A stretch of DNA of 59,180 bases from Candidatus Moraniibacteriota bacterium (lineage in GTDB: Bacteria; Patescibacteriota; Minisyncoccia; Moranbacterales; DUUL01): NCBI GenBank assembly GCA_041596615.1, contig JBFHIG010000007.1, positions 1 to 59,180 of the forward strand, in the 5' to 3' direction. Made by a program: the position numbers and the translations under genes. Positions 3,896 to 48,405 of the stretch are shown one piece after another; the stretch's first letter is position 1; each line of letters starts with the position of its first letter. The notes under the pieces were generated by a model. The model searched no databases, was not told the origin of the DNA, and worked only from the letters and a program-made list of their open reading frames with translations.

Positions 3896-3902
3896 CACTG
3901 TT

Positions 3903-3950
3903 CCTTCCCTTAGATTAAGGGAGGGCTAGGGTGGGTTAGGAATCCGAGTT
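3903..3950. repeat. Intergenic hairpin repeat, CCYTCCCTTAGATTRAGGGAGGGYTAGGGTGGGTTA family, copy a
   Basis: 41 of 48 nt are identical to 5372-5419. The stem is CCTTCCCT/AGGGAGGG; the single difference from copy b in the stem gives a G.U wobble. Confidence 0.7.
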
Positions 3951-4042
3951 AAATAATTAATTTCGAATTTTTCAATAATGAATAAAAATTAATTTTCGAT
4001 TAAAAACCAAACATGCCTTAGCACTATCCTCAAACTAATGCA

Positions 4043-5196: not shown

Positions 5197-5371
5197 AGTT
5201 GTGCGCAATATATGTCGTTTAGCTTAAAGCACATAGCAAAGATGTAGTTATTTACTGTTTATTGGCTGGTTAACGGATTGTTAAAATAAGATAACTTTGA
5301 ATCTTGAATTTCGAATTATTTAATAACTAAAGAAAAGTTAATTTTAAATTTTTAAAGGAAGAGGTGCCACT

Positions 5372-5419
5372 CCCTCCCTTAGATTGAGGGAGGGTTAGGG
5401 TGGGTTAAGAGCCTGAGTT
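5372..5419. repeat. Intergenic hairpin repeat, same family as 3903-3950, copy b
   Basis: CCCTCCCT-tagattg-AGGGAGGG forms a perfect 8-bp stem and is followed by TTAGGGTGGGTTA. A degenerate third copy (TTCCCCTTAGACCAAGAGGGAA) lies at about 5458-5480, and a related hairpin (TCTCCCTTCACAAAGGGGGA) at about 1403-1424. Confidence 0.7.
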
Positions 5420-5849
5420 GAATTAGCTTTAAATTTCAGAAACCCAACTCCTCCTAGCTTCCCCTTAGACCAAGAGGGAAACAGGAAACGACAAGCCCAT
5501 TCCAGCGCAAAGTTTTTGACTTTTTCAAAAAACCCTTTACTATCAAGAGTAATTGTGTCATATTGTAGCGAACCCGTCGTATAACATGCTATAATTAATT
5601 ATTGCTTATTAATAAGCTAATGTGTTAACGGATTGCGAGAACTGTGGATTAATTTTCAATTTTTAATTTATAATTTCTAAACAATTTTCAATTAGCCAAT
5701 TTCTAATTTAAAGACAAGCAAAAAATCGCTGGGCATTGTTGGTCAATCACAGCACAACAATATCGTAGTCACACTTTCTTTTAGTCATTAAATCATTATA
5801 AATTTTTTGAAAATTGAAAATTAGAAATTGAAAATTCTTTTACTGCAAT

Positions 5850-18790: not shown

Positions 18791-19057
18791 TTATTTTTTC
18801 TTCAAAACCCTTCTTTTTCTACGAATCGGAGCTTTTCTGGTAACTTCAGTTGATTTACAAAACATACCTTTTAGGATAGCTTCATCATCAATTGCATTAA
18901 TTTTAACATAGATAGCTACTAAAAGCATTACTGTTGCTACTTGTAACCATTGCGATGACGCTAAAAAAATATCATTGATTGACCAACTATAAACTGATAC
19001 TAAGACGGCGATTGCAGCGAATGTGAAAAAGCCATCTGCTAGAATTTTATGATACAT
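18791..19057 (-). CDS. Small two-TM membrane protein with basic tail, unknown function
   Basis: 88-aa ORF between secD and trmH with tight spacing. Two hydrophobic helices and a KRRVLKKK tail. No recognisable family. Confidence 0.45.
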   Translation of the reverse strand: MYHKILADGFFTFAAIAVLVSVYSWSINDIFLASSQWLQVATVMLLVAIYVKINAIDDEAILKGMFCKSTEVTRKAPIRRKRRVLKKK

Positions 19058-40146: not shown

Positions 40147-40219
40147 ACTCTTTTTATCTTGCTTTAAATCTTACATGCTCCAGTGCATTCTTCTGACAAA
40201 GTTTTCCGCAAAAAAATAG

Positions 40220-40290
40220 TCGGGCCGCCGAGAGTCGAACTCGGGCTACACACACCCCATGCGCGCGTACTACCGTTATACTACGGCCCG
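40220..40290 (-). tRNA. tRNA-Pro (anticodon GGG)
   Basis: Hand-folded cloverleaf. Acceptor CGGGCCG/CGGCCCG (C1-G72), D arm GTAT-AACGGTA-GTAC, anticodon arm CGCGC-AT[GGG]GT-GTGTG, 4-nt variable loop, T arm CCGAG-TTCGACT-CTCGG, discriminator A. No encoded CCA. Confidence 0.9.
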
Positions 40291-40296
40291 ATAAAA

Positions 40297-41391
40297 TTAT
40301 TTTATCAAATTAAAATCAAAAAATATATCCCTTAAAATTTCAGTAAATTTTTTAAATTGAGAAATTGAGAGTTTTTCATTTACTGTGTGGCACCCGTAGT
40401 ATCCCAATCCAACATTTACAGATTCTATCTTTTTTTCCGCAAGACAATTATTGCTACTAATGAGCAGTTGTTGTTCCAGTTCAATTTTAACTCCATTATT
40501 AAGATAAACCTTTTTAAGCTTTGTTACAAATTCCCCCTTCTTGTTAGCAATGGCCGAACTATATTTCTCCACAATTTTAATCTTAGTTTTTGTTCTAAAT
40601 TCTTCATCAGCAGACTCACAAACAACTGCTAGGTTTTTTATAAATTCGTCAACATCATCTTCTTCAAAACAATAGATATTTCCTTTCAGATAAGCATCTT
40701 TAGCTACCATTGTAGTGCCCTTTCCGCCATGAATGATGCCCGTGTTTGCAACACATCCTTTTTTATAAAATCCCCAGTCAATTGAATCTATAATTCTAGC
40801 TAAAGTTGCTATTGCATTGGCACCTTTTTCATAATCAATTTGAGCATAAACTTCTTTACCTTTTATGGAAATTTCAAAAACTTTTGCGTTAGGACTTTTG
40901 TAGAGAATTTTTTTAATCTCAGCTGCGTTATCAAGAACAATCGCTTTCTTAGAGGAAATATCGGCATATGAAAGAGTGTGATCACCCTCTTCTTCGTTCG
41001 TTGAAAAAATCAATTCGAGATTTTGCAATTCCTTTTTCTGTTCAAGAAAATATTCCACTAGAAACATTATTGCTGCAATTCCAGATTTTGGATCAGCTCC
41101 TAAAATTGTAGTACCGTCCGTGATAATAAAATCACCTTTAATTCTGGGCTTAATTTTTTCGCCAGGACTTACCGTGTCTACGTGTGTCGTTAAAAGTAAT
41201 GCCTTTTTTGGATCAAAAATCTTTGTTTTAAAAATTAAATTTCCCTTTTCATCCAAACCACCAGAAAAATTATACTTCAGAAAAAAATCCAAAAGTAGCT
41301 GTTGAAATTCTGCTACTTGACCTGTTGGGCTAGACTTCTTAATTAATTTTAAGAAAATTTGGATCAATCTTTCATTATTCATTTTTTGCAT
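40297..41391 (-). CDS. M20 family metallopeptidase (PepT-like)
   Basis: 364 aa. LLTTHVDTV, TTILGADPKSGIAAIM (compare the GADDKAG of peptidase T), FSTNEEEG. Confidence 0.7.
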   Translation of the reverse strand: MQKMNNERLIQIFLKLIKKSSPTGQVAEFQQLLLDFFLKYNFSGGLDEKGNLIFKTKIFDPKKALLLTTHVDTVSPGEKIKPRIKGDFIITDGTTILGADPKSGIAAIMFLVEYFLEQKKELQNLELIFSTNEEEGDHTLSYADISSKKAIVLDNAAEIKKILYKSPNAKVFEISIKGKEVYAQIDYEKGANAIATLARIIDSIDWGFYKKGCVANTGIIHGGKGTTMVAKDAYLKGNIYCFEEDDVDEFIKNLAVVCESADEEFRTKTKIKIVEKYSSAIANKKGEFVTKLKKVYLNNGVKIELEQQLLISSNNCLAEKKIESVNVGLGYYGCHTVNEKLSISQFKKFTEILRDIFFDFNLIK

Positions 41392-41471
41392 TTTTTTAAA
41401 ACTATACTTTATTATACACTTTTTATTCCCTCTGTTAAATTGTCTTTATTAAAAAAATAATTTAACAAAGG

Positions 41472-41499
41472 GCGGGATTTCGTTTTTAAGAAATCCCGC
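41472..41499 (-). terminator. Hairpin downstream of the 490-aa orphan gene
   Basis: GCGGGATTTC-8 nt-GAAATCCCGC (10-bp perfect stem) with T-rich flanks on both strands. Confidence 0.55.
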
Positions 41500-41528
41500 A
41501 CAGTTTTTTATATTTCAACATTGACCCT

Positions 41529-43001
41529 CTAGGAACAACAGAGCTCCCTAATGTTCCTCCTCGATTGACTCAAGACCTCCAGTTGATTGAAAAGTTGATT
41601 TAAGTTGGTCTCGACAGATGATTGTGGCAAATCGCTGAAAAGATTTTCACAAACAGCAAACATCCCAGCTTCATGAACACAAAATTCCCATCTTGGTAAA
41701 GAAATTACTTTAACCATCTCGCCTCCACCTTTACAACGGCAAGCGACTTTTATTTTCTTTACGCCTATTTCCCTGAAAGAAAGAGCTTCCGACAAAGAAC
41801 GATAGAAATCACTAGAGATCCACCAACCGTTGTTCCTTAAAAATCCCAAACGTTTAAAACGTTCACAGTAGATTTTTTCTGCTCTATCAGTGACAATTTC
41901 TTCCGCTCTATCTTCTGTTCCAATTATCTCATCAGCATGATATCTGAGCCAAAGATTATCAGAGCCCTTGATTCCACAAAATCCAACGAAGCCCTCGGAA
42001 TTATAATAATCCATCAGAGCAACGATCATGGTGTCAAAGATATTTCCTCCGCCCAAAAGTTGTGAAACAGCTTCTTGCACCTGAAAGATAACCTTTTTAT
42101 TGGGAAATTTCGAGTGTGGCAAAAATCCTTCGACAAAATTTAGCTGTCGGTCGATTTGCATTGGAGAAACTTGGACAGTAACTATTTGTGGAATAATATT
42201 CCCAGCACCATCGCGAATCATCTGATAGGAAAGTTTGAAAAATCCAACCTGCGGATCTTCCAAGCAAATTGAAAGACTCATTCCCATGTGACCTTCCCCG
42301 TCACCAAGAGAAAAGCGCAAGAAAACATCTTTAGATTCATCTTGGATAAGAATTTTTCCAATCCTTCGATAAAAACCCTTGGGGATAAAAACATTTCTTT
42401 TCTTATCATGGTCAATGGGGATGCCAGTTGAACGATGGACGAAAGCAAAAGAAGATCCAAAAATCCTTTTTCTTTCTTGTAAATTGATTGATATTTGATC
42501 AAGATATGTTTCGATTGTAAGTTTTTTAACCCCAATCATACTGAGCAAACTCTCACAACGAAAAATTCCAAAAGGATACACCTCCCAAAACAAACCTCCA
42601 AAATCAGAAATCTCTTCCAGTAATTGCTGGTTTATTTTCAGAAAATTTTGAACAGCAATGAGGCCGTCTTCTAGAGAAACTTGGTTTGAAGTTCGCAACA
42701 GAGCAAAATCAGAAAGAAACACTCTTTCATCTTTTGAGCAGATTATTCTACTCACCACGTGATCGATTCGAGATCCGTCGTAGGTTACCGATGATTCATC
42801 GGCTCCAGCGAGGAATCCTGCCCCACATAAATATTTCAACAAATCAATAATTATTTCTGGGTCAATTTTCGGAAATTGATCAAATAAAAAGCTACATGCT
42901 TTTTCCCCTGCGTCACTCAAAGAAACTTCAAAAAGAAATCCAAACCATCCACGATGATAAGCACCAATTGAACCATTAAACAAACTAATCTCTTGTTTCA
43001 T
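41529..43001 (-). CDS. Orphan 490-aa protein, no recognisable motif (protein A)
   Basis: Long uninterrupted ORF preceded by GAGGGG 7 nt before the ATG. Soluble and Cys-rich toward the C-terminus (..ACRCKGGGEM..FCVHEAGMFAVCE..ELCCS). I cannot assign a family. Confidence 0.75.
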   Translation of the reverse strand: MKQEISLFNGSIGAYHRGWFGFLFEVSLSDAGEKACSFLFDQFPKIDPEIIIDLLKYLCGAGFLAGADESSVTYDGSRIDHVVSRIICSKDERVFLSDFALLRTSNQVSLEDGLIAVQNFLKINQQLLEEISDFGGLFWEVYPFGIFRCESLLSMIGVKKLTIETYLDQISINLQERKRIFGSSFAFVHRSTGIPIDHDKKRNVFIPKGFYRRIGKILIQDESKDVFLRFSLGDGEGHMGMSLSICLEDPQVGFFKLSYQMIRDGAGNIIPQIVTVQVSPMQIDRQLNFVEGFLPHSKFPNKKVIFQVQEAVSQLLGGGNIFDTMIVALMDYYNSEGFVGFCGIKGSDNLWLRYHADEIIGTEDRAEEIVTDRAEKIYCERFKRLGFLRNNGWWISSDFYRSLSEALSFREIGVKKIKVACRCKGGGEMVKVISLPRWEFCVHEAGMFAVCENLFSDLPQSSVETNLNQLFNQLEVLSQSRRNIRELCCS

Positions 43002-43065
43002 AGCAATCCCCTCTGTGTAAGTTATATTTCGTTACGTCGTCAATGTAAAATTTTTCAAGGTACAT

Positions 43066-43257
43066 GTACAAAAAAGCCGCCTTGGGGGCGGTTTATGTTT
43101 GCTTGTCTGAGAATCTATTTAGCTAACTTATCTGATTTATTCTCTGAAAAATTCGTCTAGCAAACACAAAACGCCCGGAGTGACCGGAGATTTTTTTGCG
43201 ACATGCTTGGCTGAATTTTTTAAATCAATCAGATTCATAACTTAAAATAAATTCTAT
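43066..43257 (-). promoter_or_regulatory. Leader cassette 1: short ORF + terminator/antiterminator switch upstream of protein A
   Basis: The terminator is CCGCC-cccaa-GGCGG + CUUUUUUG (43094-43066). The antiterminator pairs RNA CCGGGCGUUUUGUGUUUG (plus-strand coordinates 43178-43161, inside the short ORF) with CAAACAUAAACCGCCC (43101-43086). That gives 15 of 16 pairs including one G.U, and it overlaps the 5' arm of the terminator. Confidence 0.5.
43137..43238 (-). CDS. Candidate 33-codon leader peptide (MNLIDLKNSAKHVAKKSPVTPGVLCLLDEFFRE)
   Basis: ATG..TAA ORF between a consensus promoter and an intrinsic terminator. No obvious SD. Its position relative to the antiterminator matches that of the ORF at 45347-45439. 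Confidence 0.3.
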   Translation of the reverse strand: MNLIDLKNSAKHVAKKSPVTPGVLCLLDEFFRE

Positions 43258-43263
43258 GCAAGA

Positions 43264-43291
43264 ATTATAACAGTTTAATTTAAGGTGTCAA
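43264..43291 (-). promoter_or_regulatory. Consensus sigma70-type promoter of leader cassette 1
   Basis: Minus strand: TTGACA (43291-86) - 16 nt - TATAAT (43269-64). Confidence 0.6.
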
Positions 43292-43383
43292 ACTTCTCCA
43301 ACAAAAATATTTTTAAAACGTATTTATTTTATCAGGAAAATTAATAATCTTATCATTGTTAATATTTTCCAAATAAACAATCT

Positions 43384-44328
43384 CTATTCATTTGAAAAAT
43401 CAACAACAATCTTTTGCGCTTTACTCAGAAACTCACCCTTTAATCTACTGATATCATCTAGGTCGCTGTGATAAACTGGCATAAGCCCATCAATATCTCC
43501 TGCCAAAACAACTGTTTTGTTTTCAAATTCATTCAAATTTTTTATCGGGAATGCTTGAAATAAAAGTTCTTTATTTTTATATAAATTAGGCTCACTATGG
43601 CCAACCCCATCAACGACGACTATTTTTTTTACTTTTTTTAGTAAATTTAAGTATTTTTTCTCAAAATCCCTATAGCCAAATCCCCAGTAAACTGGGTACT
43701 CATAGGATAATTCCTCTGAGCCACATATAGCAAAAAGATTATCTTTTATTATTTTGGGATTTGAAATAATTGCATCAAGAATAACTGCCACACCACTTGC
43801 ATTATCTATTGCTCCTTTTTTTATACTATCAATATGAGTAAAAAAAATATTTTTTGGAGCTTTTTTGTTACCTACTAAAAAATTTGCGCTTTTGCAAAAC
43901 TTTTTTTCAACTTTCGTAAAACCCTCTATTTTTTCTGCATTTAAAACTCTACAAACATCCATAGATGAAATTGCTAAAGAAGGCGCATTATAAAAACTAA
44001 CCAACGAAATATCCTTACAATATGGATTAAAGTTTATATTTGGGGAGCTCGACTCAAAATCAGACAAAGAGCTTACTAGGTTGTGTTTATTATCAATACT
44101 GCCGCTTATGAATCCACTGTTTTCGCAATTTATTTCAACATTATCGACCTTAAGTCCTGATGAAATTTCAACTGGTATACAATTTTCATAACTTTCAATC
44201 TCAAATTCAATCCCATTTGCTCTAAGAATTTTTTTTATTTCATTTATCGCGATTTCCTCACCTTCGGATTGGCGCTGAGGAATTTCTGTAAGTTTTTCAA
44301 TAAATTTTAGTTTGCTAAATTTCTTCAT
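43384..44328 (-). CDS. M28 family aminopeptidase-like protein (protein B)
   Basis: 314 aa. FFTHIDSIKKGAIDNASGVAVILD (the HxDS...GAxDNASG metal-ligand signature of M28), GSEELS. Confidence 0.7.
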   Translation of the reverse strand: MKKFSKLKFIEKLTEIPQRQSEGEEIAINEIKKILRANGIEFEIESYENCIPVEISSGLKVDNVEINCENSGFISGSIDNKHNLVSSLSDFESSSPNINFNPYCKDISLVSFYNAPSLAISSMDVCRVLNAEKIEGFTKVEKKFCKSANFLVGNKKAPKNIFFTHIDSIKKGAIDNASGVAVILDAIISNPKIIKDNLFAICGSEELSYEYPVYWGFGYRDFEKKYLNLLKKVKKIVVVDGVGHSEPNLYKNKELLFQAFPIKNLNEFENKTVVLAGDIDGLMPVYHSDLDDISRLKGEFLSKAQKIVVDFSNE

Positions 44329-44390
44329 AATATATTTTATTAAATAAAAAGTTTTATATATTAAACTTTAAGCTCTTGGTTCATAATAGT

Positions 44391-44432
44391 CAAAAAATGG
44401 TGGGAGATGAATAGTTCATTCACCTCCCACCC
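44391..44432 (-). terminator. Intrinsic terminator downstream of protein C
   Basis: Minus strand: GGTGGGAGGTGAAT-gaact-ATTCATCTCCCACC (14-bp stem, 1 mismatch) followed by ATTTTTTG. Confidence 0.65.
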
Positions 44433-44446
44433 AAACAAAACTGTTT

Positions 44447-45193
44447 TTAACTTCTTACTAATTCTTCGAGTTGTCCAGGATACCATCCCCAGGAATTATT
44501 TGCTGCCCTATTTCTTGGAAGCAAAGAGACCACCAATGGCTTGATGCCAAATCTTTTTTGAACTTTTTCAAACGCAGGAATAACTACACTTTTTGAGAAT
44601 TCTCCTTCGCGACCCTCCAAGAGAAAGTTTTCAAAAAGAACCCCATGACAAATAAACAGCGAGAGAAACGCCTCATAATACAAGGGGGCTGAATCTCCTA
44701 TTTCCTGAATCCAAGACGATATATCAACTCGCTTGGCTTCCAAGGGAAAATAAGACTCAAACATTCTACTGTGGATATCCAAAAGACTGACTTCTGAATT
44801 GACTCTAGTCCTGATATCACAAATAGCTTTCTTTGAAGCTCTCTCAATATCAACTATCTTCTGGATGCTTGTCTTATTCCCGCCGTTTCTTCCTTTCCCA
44901 TAATAGAAAATGAGTTTTGCTAACATAACCTTGTCTACATTAGCAGAACTGAACCTATCTCTTGAATATTCCAACCAAATAGGTGTCAGACCATTTCCAC
45001 TTGTAGTTTCCCAGAATCTTATGCTTTCAAAATTTGGGGTGGCAACTTGACGAGCCATCACAGCCATTGGTCGACTTAGACAACGAATTTGTTCTGGCAA
45101 GTTTTTTAAAAAATTCTCTACTTCTTCTTTCAAGCCTGGTTCTGCAAACCTTGTCTTTATCTGTACCCGTGCATCGTTTAATTCGGTATACAT
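44447..45193 (-). CDS. Orphan 248-aa protein, no recognisable motif (protein C)
   Basis: ORF preceded by a perfect AAGGAG SD. Notable segments: RQVATPNFESIRFWE, YYGKGRNGGN, FLSLFICHGVLFENFLLEGREGEF..IPAFEKV..GIKPLVV. I cannot assign a family. Confidence 0.75.
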   Translation of the reverse strand: MYTELNDARVQIKTRFAEPGLKEEVENFLKNLPEQIRCLSRPMAVMARQVATPNFESIRFWETTSGNGLTPIWLEYSRDRFSSANVDKVMLAKLIFYYGKGRNGGNKTSIQKIVDIERASKKAICDIRTRVNSEVSLLDIHSRMFESYFPLEAKRVDISSWIQEIGDSAPLYYEAFLSLFICHGVLFENFLLEGREGEFSKSVVIPAFEKVQKRFGIKPLVVSLLPRNRAANNSWGWYPGQLEELVRS

Positions 45194-45283
45194 AGAATAA
45201 CTCCTTCTTTTTGTTGAAATTTATCTTCCCTGTTTCGCCTTATGCAAGAATTAATATCCTAGTTAAATTTAAAGAACTTCCTT

Positions 45284-45475
45284 AAAAACAAAAAAACTGA
45301 CCTACTTTGGTCAGCTTTGGACTATTGAGAATTTTTCAGACGTTTATTAGACTTCTATTCTCGACAAACCAAAACTGACCGGTGTAAACCAGAGCATAAA
45401 GAGAATAAACAAATAAGTTGTATTCTTTCCTTGATTCATCAAACTAATAAAACTAATTACGTCTATCTAAACTTC
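45284..45475 (-). promoter_or_regulatory. Leader cassette 2: short ORF + terminator/antiterminator switch upstream of protein C
   Basis: The terminator is CUGACC-aaagua-GGUCAG + U7 (45314-45285). The antiterminator pairs RNA GGUCAGUUUUGG (45380-45369, inside the short ORF) with CCAAAGCUGACC (45320-45309). That gives 12 pairs including one G.U, and it overlaps the 5' arm of the terminator. Confidence 0.5.
45347..45439 (-). CDS. Candidate 30-codon hydrophobic leader peptide (MNQGKNTTYLFILFMLWFTPVSFGLSRIEV)
   Basis: ATG..TAA ORF between a promoter (45482-45510) and an intrinsic terminator. It begins ATGAATC like the ORF at 43238. It could alternatively be a type I toxin-like peptide. Confidence 0.3.
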   Translation of the reverse strand: MNQGKNTTYLFILFMLWFTPVSFGLSRIEV

Positions 45476-45481
45476 ATCACA

Positions 45482-45510
45482 AGATTAACAATACATTGAA
45501 GGTTTGTCAA
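45482..45510 (-). promoter_or_regulatory. Sigma70-type promoter of leader cassette 2
   Basis: Minus strand: TTGACA (45510-05) - 17 nt - TAATCT (45487-82). Confidence 0.5.
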
Positions 45511-45584: not shown

Positions 45585-45620
45585 GAAAAACTGAGGGCTT
45601 GTAAGATTCACAAACCCTCC
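45585..45620 (-). terminator. Intrinsic terminator downstream of the 66-aa gene
   Basis: Minus strand: GAGGGTTTGT-gaatctt-ACAAGCCCTC (1 mismatch) followed by AGTTTTTC. Confidence 0.6.
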
Positions 45621-45637
45621 TAATAAGCGAAGCTTTC

Positions 45638-45838
45638 TCAGTCTGCTGCCACCTGTTCAAGCAACTGCCTTGCACGTACCTCTTGCCAGTATCGTCTTTT
45701 TTTTGCCTCTTTAAGCTCTTTTTGAGGGACTCTCTGGTCCCCCTTTATACTTCGGCTGGAGCCGGACTTTTGTAGGTGTCCGATTTTTTTTTCTGTATTT
45801 CCGGCAATTATGCCTGCCTTATTCCTCTTTTTGCACAT
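45638..45838 (-). CDS. Small basic 66-aa protein, unknown function (protein D)
   Basis: ORF preceded by GAGGGGGG close to the ATG. Lys/Arg-rich with a predicted C-terminal helix (KELKEAKKRRYWQEVRARQLLEQ). It has its own terminator. Confidence 0.55.
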   Translation of the reverse strand: MCKKRNKAGIIAGNTEKKIGHLQKSGSSRSIKGDQRVPQKELKEAKKRRYWQEVRARQLLEQVAAD

Positions 45839-46124
45839 AAACCCCCCTCAGAAAATTTTCAGGATTTCCCTCTAAAAAACTTCACTTATTTTTTGACCAA
45901 ATTGTAAATTACAATCAAAGCCAAGAATAAAAAACAATTTTCTGCATCCTATTCTTGACCTAGGTCTTTTTTTAAAAAACTCTTTAAAATCAGTTCTCTT
46001 GCAGTACAAAGCTCTTGTTGTCCACAATTATACAATTATGTCAACATTTGTCAATACAATATAACAGCAATTGACATAATCGCTGAAATATACGATAGTT
46101 AAGTTACAAAATATTTCAATACTT

Positions 46125-47370: not shown

Positions 47371-47568
47371 CTAGTCAATGGGCTTCTTGCACTCCTGGCA
47401 AACGACAGGGATCTCAGGTGGTGTACGATGAGGACAATCCACCAATTCATACCACAAACCTGGCCGCCTAGAAATGGGCTTGCATTGACAACTCCCACAA
47501 CCCCCCTTTTTGTTACCATCTGCTTCTTGCCCTCTTTGATGCATTTTTGTATTCTCCATAAAATTCAT
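47371..47568 (-). CDS. Small Cys-rich zinc-ribbon protein (candidate antitoxin/partner of the upstream DUF4258-like gene)
   Basis: 62-65 aa. GGCGSCQC...C...CQEC pattern. About 50% GC in a hand-counted 60-nt stretch, well above its surroundings. The ATG at 47568 overlaps the upstream stop (ATGA). The ATG at 47559 is better spaced from the GGGAGG SD. Confidence 0.6.
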   Translation of the reverse strand: MNFMENTKMHQRGQEADGNKKGGCGSCQCKPISRRPGLWYELVDCPHRTPPEIPVVCQECKKPID

Positions 47569-47906
47569 CCTCCCTTGGCTTGATGTTTATAGACCTCTTC
47601 CCAGACCTCTTCTGGAACAAAAATTTCTTTATTCCTAGGACTTTCTCCAGGGAAAATCCAGGTGGAAATTATTTTCTTCTTGCCTTTTTCGAATTGATAC
47701 ATTACCCACGTTTCTTTGGTACTAGATTTTCCTACCTTACGCCTCATGGATGCTACTGTATTTTCAGCAATCCCTTCTTCTTTTCTGTCGGGGAAGCGTA
47801 TAACTCTTTTGACCATATTGGTGCCAATCGAATATTGAATCATCTTTCTTTTCGAGTGACTCGTCCAGTAATAGTTTCTATCATTCTTCGGGAATTTAAA
47901 CTCCAT
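47565..47906 (-). CDS. DUF4258-like small protein (putative toxin of a type II TA-like pair)
   Basis: MEFKFPKNDRNYYWTSHSKRKMIQYSIGTNMVKRVIRFPDRKEEGI..ETWVMYQFEKGKKKIISTWIF. The pattern SxHxxxRMxxxxI-x4-V-xxVI-xxPD...V-Y...IIT-W resembles DUF4258. The track ORF start (TTG at 47945) overlaps the DUF192 gene; the ATG at 47906 is preferred. Confidence 0.55.
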   Translation of the reverse strand: MEFKFPKNDRNYYWTSHSKRKMIQYSIGTNMVKRVIRFPDRKEEGIAENTVASMRRKVGKSSTKETWVMYQFEKGKKKIISTWIFPGESPRNKEIFVPEEVWEEVYKHQAKGG

Positions 47907-47928
47907 TTGCTTAGTTTTATTTTTAAAA

Positions 47929-48405
47929 CTACTTACCCAGATCAACTAAATCCCCTACTTTAACATCATTTTTCCGAACCCAATCAGCATTAACTTCAAG
48001 CACTTTATCATATTCAGCTCCGCCTTTTATTGTCCCAGTATACCGATAGGAAACACTTTTAGCAATATCAACAATCCTGTCATCGTTAATAAAAATAAAA
48101 TCTAAATCGAACTTCATCTCTCTCATAGAATAAATATACTCACCCGGAAATTCATGGACAAAAAGCATGCCTTCATTATCTCTCATAACATCAACACCAC
48201 CTAAACCCCTAAACCTCAGCTCTTCGGTTGAAACAACTTTCACTAAAAGTTTTTTTTTATTAATTCTAATTTTCTTATTTTGGATAGTTTCGTTTGCTAA
48301 AATTTCCTTACTATCAAAATTACTCGTGCTTTTTTGAATCACAAGTAAAAACAATCCGATTATAACAAATGTTAAAAAAATATAATCTCTAATTTTTAGC
48401 TTCAT
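47929..48405 (-). CDS. DUF192 domain protein
   Basis: 158 aa. N-terminal TM, then RFRGLGGV..EGMLFVH..YSMREMKFDLDFIFIN typical of DUF192/COG1430. Confidence 0.7.
   Translation of the reverse strand: MKLKIRDYIFLTFVIIGLFLLVIQKSTSNFDSKEILANETIQNKKIRINKKKLLVKVVSTEELRFRGLGGVDVMRDNEGMLFVHEFPGEYIYSMREMKFDLDFIFINDDRIVDIAKSVSYRYTGTIKGGAEYDKVLEVNADWVRKNDVKVGDLVDLGK

Follow-up and report, generated by a model that had tools for sequence, protein, structure and literature searches.

The 59,180-nt stretch of DNA analysed here (the window; contig JBFHIG010000007.1 of a Candidatus Moraniibacteriota bacterium) carries on its minus strand a compact leader cassette, cassette 2, which has miaA as its divergent neighbour on one side and the gene for a 248-aa protein on the other. 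The cassette combines a promoter, a 30-codon open reading frame (ORF), an intrinsic terminator and a long antiterminator (AT) stem that competes with the terminator (Table 1). A second cassette of the same layout, cassette 1, precedes a 490-aa gene farther along the same strand. The original prediction, made from the letters of this DNA, described cassette 2 as a leader with a terminator/antiterminator switch whose 5′ AT strand lies inside the short ORF, and our analysis supports this description.

The predicted parts are all in place. The promoter, TTGACA-17-TAATCT, is present on the minus strand; TTGACA is common to all eight copies of the cassette that have a promoter, and the TGnTAnnnT form of the extended −10 is retained in seven of eight relatives (sequence reading). 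Transcription would start near position 45476, and the 5′ untranslated region (5′ UTR) is ∼37 nt long. The ORF begins ATGAATC, the terminator pairs CUGACC with GGUCAG ahead of U7, and the AT 5′ strand, placed by the prediction at codon ∼20, begins at the third base of that codon. All 12 positions of GGUCAGUUUUGG pair with CCAAAGCUGACC, one of them as G-U, and the pairing includes the terminator's 5′ arm. Immediately 5′ of the AT strand is a small hairpin, Pa, whose U-G pair in the window is U-A in eight relatives; in cassette-1-type copies, its CCGG:CCGG becomes CCAG:CUGG in one case (L211b; sequence reading). Pa is possibly a pause hairpin. Rfam covariance models, including those for T-box, RAT-like, riboswitch and leader families, gave no match to cassette 2 at gathering score, and at E-values up to 10 only noise overlaps it (mir-77, 16.7 bits).

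We compared the AT duplex with the pairing available elsewhere in the window. For each of 42 terminator-like hairpins, the 5′ arm of the terminator plus 8 nt was matched against the 160 nt upstream of it, and the energy of the best duplex was calculated. The cassette 2 duplex is the strongest of the 42, at −20.3 kcal/mol, followed by two hairpins, both within coding regions, that reach −17 kcal/mol. Together with its extension, the cassette 2 AT has a free energy of −28.0 kcal/mol, whereas 200 shuffles average −11.6 kcal/mol and reach −20.4 kcal/mol at best.

Conservation and covariation of the antiterminator

Relatives of the locus were reached through MiaA, whose identity to the window protein is 65–80%, and the gene order on the miaA side is common to the window and these relatives. 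Eight further copies of cassette 2 adjoin miaA there, two of them (L209a and L209b) directly in tandem. Between the window and its L205 counterpart, cassette 2 is 92% identical, while the miaA DNA is only 77.5% identical. We aligned the window cassette with the eight copies, which are orthologous or paralogous, and used these nine sequences to examine the pairings. In the AT helix (alignment columns 103–114 with 168–179), 95% of the cells are paired, and four pairs show compensatory double changes (G-C/A-U, C-G/U-A, G-C/A-U and G-C/A-U). When the 3′ partner was slid by one to three columns as a control, the six shifted registers contained no compensatory pairs and 25–63% of cells were paired. 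The original prediction had named loss of the pairings in additional copies as grounds for abandoning the switch; they are instead maintained.

From the alignment alone, RNAalifold recovers the AT helix, its 4-bp extension, a 6-bp stem called Pb, the Pa hairpin and a weak start-codon hairpin. The Pb stem, GAGAAU:AUUCUC, is invariant in all nine copies and is also found in cassette 1. The AT 5′ strand is not simply a copy of the terminator's 3′ arm: in L208, GACCGG and GGUCGG pair with CCGGCC through different pairs. Hairpins equivalent to the terminator are present in the relatives, with a bulge or mismatch in L209a, L209b and L210. The 5′ UTR is not conserved within the family, with 3 of 38 columns invariant. 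The antiterminator helix is mutually exclusive with the terminator and evolutionarily conserved.

The layout recurs in more diverged cassettes. A covariance model of the cassette 2 core with the AT structure was run on the relatives and on 494 kb of other Patescibacteria loci as control DNA. It finds cassette 1 at 21.3 bits (E = 0.027), the best score in the control DNA being 17.3 bits, and it identifies four further diverged cassettes (Table 1). These cassettes share a common order of elements. The ORF comes first, then a small hairpin and a strand within the ORF that is rich in G/C and has a U run; a hairpin that either carries or precedes the stop codon, the complementary strand and the terminator follow. 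The stem sequences are unrelated between cassette types and the layout is retained; in cassette 1, for example, complementarity is kept by GGGCG/CGCCC despite the different sequence. The AT duplexes of window cassette 1, L206 and L209c are far beyond those of shuffled sequences, and that of L210c is about equal to the best shuffle.

Cassette 1 shows the features that the original prediction cited for it, and the prediction had further taken the two cassettes to be homologous in the AT strand and their differences to be internal covariation. At the sequence level this homology is not detectable: cassette 2 was found neither by an nhmmer profile of cassette 1 and its ortholog on the L081 contig nor by a covariance model built from these two with a rod-like fold, and the two cassettes show no significant local alignment (p = 0.11). 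What remains is the structure-level match described above and a global collinearity (global alignment z = 4.8). Because the two cassettes are barely alignable, comparing them is not valid evidence of covariation, and it is the nine copies that demonstrate covariation of the AT. A metagenome scan for the pattern AGAATTTATTTTAN{3,8}ATGAATC returned, among the matches listed, only chance matches with no extended homology.

The rod-like fold was itself a candidate for the conserved structure. Cassette 1 (43065–43262, minus strand) and the L081 leader (431–626) can each form a long rod, with the stop-codon region paired to the 5′ UTR and the beginning of the ORF. This rod is the minimum-energy fold for cassette 1, for the L081 leader and for cassette 2 in one version, and a comparison of cassette 1 with L081 shows three compensatory pairs in it; of the two cassettes, only the window copy has a strong AT. 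We rejected the rod as a conserved structure, given the unconserved 5′ UTR of the cassette 2 family and an outer rod helix that is broken in L205. Its inner part, the pairing of the start-codon region with region 2, survives as a candidate.

Table 1. Positions of cassette 2 elements, neighbouring features and related cassettes. Positions refer to the window unless a relative's locus (L number) is given.
Feature	Position	Strand	Remarks
−35 hexamer TTGACA	45505..45510	minus	direct sequence reading
Extended −10 TGtTAATCT	45482..45490	minus	TAATCT at 45487-45482; spacer from −35 of 17 nt
Translation-initiation region UUUGAUGAAUCAA, candidate region 1	45431..45443	minus	partner UUGGUUUGUCGAG
Leader ORF	45347..45439	minus	ATGAATC start; 30 codons plus stop TAA (45349-45347); peptide MNQGKNTTYLFILFMLWFTPVSFGLSRIEV
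Hairpin Pa, CUGG-UUUACA-CCGG	45379..45392	minus	directly 5′ of AT strand, then U-rich run
AT 5′ strand GGUCAGUUUUGG	45369..45380	minus	codon 20 third base to codon 24
UUGGUUUGUCGAG, partner of initiation region	45360-45372	minus	spans 3′ half of AT 5′ strand and start of Pb
AT extension, 5′ side	45357..45367	minus	UUGU, C, Pb 5′ arm GAGAAU (45362-45357); RNAalifold consensus
AT extension, 3′ side	45322..45332	minus	Pb 3′ arm AUUCUC (45332-45327), A, AUAG; RNAalifold consensus
AT 3′ strand CCAAAGCUGACC	45309..45320	minus	holds terminator 5′ arm 45309-45318
Terminator AAAGCUGACC-AAAGUA-GGUCAGUUUU	45318-45293, U7 to 45290	minus	10-bp stem plus U7
Terminator 3′ arm GGUCAG and U tract UUUUUUUGUUUUU	45284..45302	minus	
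Spacer, terminator to 248-aa gene	45194..45283	minus	strong Shine-Dalgarno AAGGAG; no promoter-like site
248-aa gene (cargo)	44447..45193	minus	widespread uncharacterised family
Cassette 1	43065..43291	minus	upstream of 490-aa gene; distant relative, same layout
490-aa gene	41529-43001	minus	
Cassette-2-type copy	L205 9285-9474		
Cassette-2-type copy	L207 1-173		cut by contig end
Cassette-2-type copy	L208 2892-3080		
Cassette-2-type copy (L209a)	L209 7993-8185		
Cassette-2-type copy (L209b)	L209 7829-8000		directly in tandem with L209a; promoterless
Cassette-2-type copy	L210 8019-8210		
Cassette-2-type copy	L211 9054-9244		
Cassette-2-type copy	L212 2121-2310		
Diverged cassette L210c	L210 8632-8717		ORF MFIRRNLLLKLLLLRDARVVFDFKE; stems GGGUGG/CCACC; covariance model
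Diverged cassette L209c	L209 8601-8687		ORF MFIRRNLLLKLLLLRDARVVFDFKE; stems GGGUGG/CCACC; covariance model
Diverged cassette	L206 9750-9834		34-codon ORF containing LLLL; stems GGAGGUC/GACCUCC; covariance model
Cassette-1-type copy	L211 3243-3331		then fragment of 490-aa gene; covariance model

Folding order and the ribosome as a candidate input

We now turn to how the two folds could be controlled. An exhaustive search of the nine-copy alignment found three long conserved helices. The first is the AT itself. The second pairs the start-codon region UUUGAUGAAUCAA with UUGGUUUGUCGAG over 13–14 bp and is possible in 94% of cells, and the third pairs UUUAUUCUC, at codons 11–13, with GAGAAUAGA over 9 bp. 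The changes in the third helix are one-sided only. When the growing transcript was folded, the start-codon/region-2 helix predominated at lengths of 118–160 nt and the AT at lengths of at least 166 nt. Transcripts that end before the terminator's 3′ arm adopt the AT fold in all eight copies folded, and at full length the AT fold and the terminator fold differ little in energy. We then masked the transcript ending before the terminator's 3′ arm with a 30-nt ribosome footprint. With the P site at codons 1–15 the AT forms, and with the P site at codons 17–27 it is abolished; at codons 29–31 it is possible on paper and probably sterically hindered.

These calculations are consistent with the following mechanism. 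The strong promoter would start a transcript of ∼190 nt that bears the 30-codon leader ORF and can adopt two mutually exclusive folds: the long AT stem, with 12 bp, 4 bp and the 6-bp Pb and its 5′ strand at ORF codons 20–28, or the intrinsic terminator. On a nascent RNA free of ribosomes, the start-codon region would pair first with the AT 5′ strand, so that the terminator forms. A ribosome held within the first ∼15 codons would leave the AT 5′ strand free, and the resulting antiterminator would allow read-through into the downstream gene. Once at codons 17–27, the ribosome would instead cover the AT strand and lead to termination. Such a device would report how well this leader, with its many Ile, Leu, Phe and Val residues, is translated. 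Its signal may be the supply of hydrophobic amino acids or a general translation stress, and the two are equally possible; since the stall window is hydrophobic, a related cassette type (L209c) has a Leu run and peptidases of the M20 and M28 families are nearby, hydrophobic amino-acid supply is a reasonable guess in organisms unable to make amino acids.

We assign a probability of roughly 60% to the reading that cassette 2 is a cis-acting transcription attenuator belonging to a family restricted to one lineage, a Moranbacteria-like clade of Patescibacteria, with its dependence on the ribosome being the more conjectural part. Judged from its sequence, it has most of the structural hallmarks of a ribosome-dependent transcription attenuator. 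The classical members of that class are the leaders of amino-acid operons, such as trpL, hisL, leuL, pheL and ilv. Like them, cassette 2 has its leader ORF close to the promoter, and it has an intrinsic terminator; one strand is common to terminator and antiterminator, and a candidate upstream strand in the ORF could sequester the antiterminator strand. It has the same predicted logic, whereby a ribosome held early gives read-through and one that runs on gives termination, and the related L209c/L210c type contains a Leu run, LLLKLLLL. Unlike in those leaders, the cassette-2-type peptide has no run of one regulatory amino acid; the ORF does not stop before the antiterminator but crosses the AT 5′ strand and stops in the AT apical loop; and the cargo is non-biosynthetic, unrelated from case to case, mostly of unknown function and genome-specific. 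The host, too, is different, being a lineage of Patescibacteria.

Another parallel is found in the ribosome-mediated attenuators that respond to translation inhibitors, among them bmrB-bmrCD of Bacillus subtilis (PMC4191407) and the mef/mel leader (PMC4335068). As in these, a leader ORF is combined with a terminator and an antiterminator, the peptide is unrelated to any biosynthetic pathway and the input would be the progress of the ribosome. The difference is that bmrB, vmlR and mef leaders precede resistance-type genes (ABC-F, efflux pump or methyltransferase), and no such gene lies downstream of the cassette.

The ORF itself is a conserved feature of the cassette. All four cassette types contain an ATG ORF of 25–34 codons. 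Dinucleotide shuffles put the chance of such a length at 0.02–0.05 per cassette (0.035 for cassette 2), which corresponds to a joint chance of ∼9e-7 across the four types, provided that the types are independent. The length is the same in all nine cassette-2-type copies, apart from a 3-nt in-frame insertion in L211 that adds one codon. In the otherwise variable apical loop, four of 24 columns are invariant, among them the stop codon's U and A (with R in the third place). An ORF that is kept while its peptide is unconstrained should be seen where a leader peptide works through its translation alone; the same pattern also fits an RNA constrained for other reasons. Translation as the input of the switch is a proposal drawn from the sequence and its predicted folds.

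The leader has no Shine-Dalgarno (SD) sequence. We rejected this as an argument against translation, as most genes in this genome lack one: the median anti-SD duplex is −0.3 kcal/mol, and about 5 of 54 ORFs are clearly SD-led. Strong SD sequences do precede both cassette-controlled genes of the window, and in the relatives they precede almost all genes that immediately follow a cassette, L210 being the exception. The SD pattern was read over the whole window, with 44447–45193, 41529–43001, 45638–45838, 18791–19057 and 47565–47945 as examples.

Several observations weigh against the attenuator. The start-codon/region-2 helix, which is the candidate anti-antiterminator, has one-sided changes only and none that are compensatory. 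The AT pairing is weak in the cassette-1-type copies of L081 and L211 (L211b). Within the ORF, pN/pS is 0.76 in the coding frame as against 0.60 and 0.61 in the other frames, the variable columns are spread over the codon positions as 15, 14 and 12, and all six codon changes between the window and L205 are non-synonymous; because there is no coding signature, the conserved peptide could be a by-product of constraint on the RNA. Codons 8–17 encode I-Y-V-F-I-L-F-M-L-W, without a regulatory run of a single residue. The cassette is kept while the gene behind it changes, with homology ending at the terminator, which is compatible with an independent gene. Finally, the downstream genes are mutually unrelated and of unknown function, and they offer no physiological logic against which the regulation could be checked.

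Stand-alone, factor-dependent and chance readings

The strongest of the competing explanations, though an unlikely one, is that the cassette is a stand-alone small gene, whose product would be either a hydrophobic membrane peptide of 30 aa, perhaps a type I toxin, or a small RNA of ∼190 nt. The terminator would then end the unit, the long-range helices would control the folding, stability or translation of the mRNA and the downstream gene would be affected only incidentally, if at all. The peptide is nearly identical in the nine copies and has a hydrophobic stretch of ∼17 residues, and the cassette brings a strong promoter and a terminator of its own. It remains where it is even as the downstream genes change, and homology stops at the U run. 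The mRNAs of type I toxins such as hok, tisB and aapA likewise contain a hydrophobic ORF of ∼30 codons, a start codon that can be hidden by long-range pairing and their own promoter and terminator. In addition, a weak antisense promoter-like sequence, TTGAGA-17-TAGACT, matches 9 of 12 positions on the plus strand (45325–45353), and its TAnnnT hexamer is retained in eight of nine copies (sequence reading).

Other observations speak against this reading. The −35- and −10-like bases of the antisense site are already accounted for by the Pb stem and the stop codon, and no plus-strand terminator for an antitoxin RNA was seen nearby; compared with hok, tisB and aapA, no convincing antisense RNA gene was recognised. 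The cassette also differs from them in that the peptide is not under coding-type selection and in that sister cassettes encode quite different peptides, those of the cassette-1 type not being hydrophobic. Searches of toxin and leader-peptide families gave no match for the peptide. A helix that competes and covaries with the terminator has no obvious role in a stand-alone gene, nor is it a feature of the toxin mRNAs.

The surroundings of the terminator bear on the same choice. A promoter-like site is absent from the spacer between terminator and gene in 9 of 11 cassettes. In L209, the second copy, L209b, starts ∼20 nt after the terminator of L209a and has no promoter of its own; it must therefore be transcribed by read-through only, and the two look, from their sequences, like attenuators in series. 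The promoterless spacers and L209b favour a leader over a stand-alone gene as far as sequence can tell. The toxin, which the original prediction had raised as an alternative on account of the strongly hydrophobic peptide, is less likely: the hydrophobicity is real, and the role is weakened by the absence of coding-type selection, the non-hydrophobic sister peptides and the promoterless tandem copy.

Less probable again is a factor-dependent antiterminator, in which a protein or small ligand would bind the AT/Pb stem or Pa, with an incidental ORF that is not translated. GAGAAU:AUUCUC does not vary and UUUUGGUUU hardly varies, and conservation of the helix sequence beyond what pairing needs suggests sequence-specific recognition. 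The missing coding signature agrees with this, and a candidate protein might be encoded by a conserved gene for a 66-aa Lys/Arg-rich protein. In the window and L205 this gene immediately precedes the cassette; in L206, L209, L210 and L211 it lies beside miaA. The ORF, however, is present in all four cassette types, has a conserved stop codon and tolerates an in-frame insertion. Moreover, the stems differ wholly between the cassette types, so that only Pb could serve as a shared binding site; the apical loop varies; and no Rfam family, T-box, RAT-like and riboswitch families included, matches.

A chance arrangement, in which an ordinary terminator just happens to have a complement and an ORF upstream of it and for which one could cite the two coding-region hairpins that reach −17 kcal/mol, is effectively refuted on sequence grounds by the conservation and covariation in nine copies, the recurrence in diverged cassettes, the ORF statistics and the lack of a comparable match in the control DNA.

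Exchangeable genes behind the cassette

The gene that follows cassette 2 in the window is not the orphan that the original prediction supposed. Besides the window copy, the 248-aa protein has 91 database homologs at E ≤ 1e-3, in Patescibacteria, Nitrospirae, Bdellovibrionales and others, with a best identity of 44%. The predicted switch ahead of it, an AT/terminator cassette with the AT 5′ strand in the ORF, stands, but it is not specific to this gene. Among the 76 homologs examined in GTDB representative genomes, none has an upstream region that matches the cassette model, and 12 have a terminator of any kind within 400 nt upstream; the nearest homolog (L202) has no leader. The 248-aa protein belongs to no family in Pfam, NCBIfam, PADLOC or PHROG, and a sequence search of the PDB gave nothing usable. 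Its AlphaFold2 model is very confident (pLDDT 95.8, pTM 0.91), and a Foldseek comparison with solved structures found no match, the best hits being HUP-class Rossmann-like folds at an E-value of 0.09 and TM ∼0.3.

The 490-aa protein behind cassette 1 is far rarer. It has one full-length homolog among 5.8 billion proteins (P0094, 61% identity, L081 646–2172), and a 111-aa fragment of its N-terminus is encoded at L211 2821–3156. Each copy has a cassette-1-type leader upstream, that of P0094 being the orthologous leader on the L081 contig, and both full-length copies have an M20 (PepT-like) peptidase gene behind them. Searches of Pfam, NCBIfam, PADLOC and PHROGs and of PDB sequences and folds gave nothing usable for this protein.

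Behind the other copies of cassette 2, the genes are different in each genome. The homology between the window and L205 stops at position 45282, two bases past the U run. After the terminator, the 248-aa gene of the window is replaced by ORFs of 44 and 149 aa in L205, by a 462-aa gene in L208, by a 460-aa gene of unknown function and an M20 peptidase after the second copy in L209, by a 149-aa HAD-like gene and a 401-aa gene in L210, by a 531-aa gene and a DIT1/PvcA-like gene in L211 and by ORFs of 51 and 461 aa in L212. All of these genes are on the same strand as their cassette and begin 41–157 nt past its terminator.

The region from the cassette 2 terminator to the tRNA-Pro gene (40219–40290, minus strand), at 40291–45283, is a variable island, in which close relatives carry different genes and L206 has none. 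Between miaA and cassette 2 lies a separate small transcription unit (45593–46054, minus strand), with a promoter matching 12 of 12 positions (46054–46027) and a terminator (45619–45593); its 66-aa Lys/Arg-rich ORF (45838–45638) has a strong SD sequence and no Pfam family. ORFs of 64–70 aa are found beside miaA in L205, L209, L210 and L211, and a comparable basic ORF in L206. Elsewhere in the window, an intergenic GC-rich hairpin, CCCTCCC..GAGGGAGGG, is repeated in two copies with 85% identity (3902–3954 and 5371–5423), and AT-rich AATTTTGAATTTTGAATTTC repeats occur in four copies (1713, 5293, 5658 and 8177).

As a type of mechanism, the proposed attenuation is textbook. What is unusual is the modular association of the cassette with exchangeable downstream genes, in a family that was previously undescribed; our literature search found no attenuator described in Patescibacteria (Candidate Phyla Radiation). 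The cassettes resemble the premature-terminator leaders of genome-wide surveys (PMC2965389) in being 5′ leaders with a terminator and an alternative fold that are fast-evolving and lineage-specific; unlike those, the family is present in multiple copies per genome and is tied to a variable gene island. The leader peptide might, by analogy with the dual-function attenuator leader peptide peTrpL (PMC7298713), additionally be a functional small membrane peptide.

We tentatively suggest, at well below even odds, that the family is a portable expression gate: a diverged, multi-copy module of promoter, leader and attenuator at the entrance of the variable island between miaA and tRNA-Pro. If so, horizontally acquired, SD-bearing cargo would come under the control of the cell's translational state in a genome that is poor in SD sequences. 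This cargo comprises uncharacterised proteins of 250–530 aa, M20/M28 peptidases and weak, below-threshold matches to ATP-grasp-like and DIT1/PvcA-like proteins. The evolutionary pattern would be one in which the gate is retained while the genes behind it are exchanged, and the 248-aa and 490-aa families would be flagged as apparently conditionally expressed. The analysis adds a comparatively well-supported cis-regulatory RNA family in Patescibacteria, and with it a handle on how gene expression might be tied to translation or to amino-acid supply in reduced cells that are auxotrophic for amino acids.

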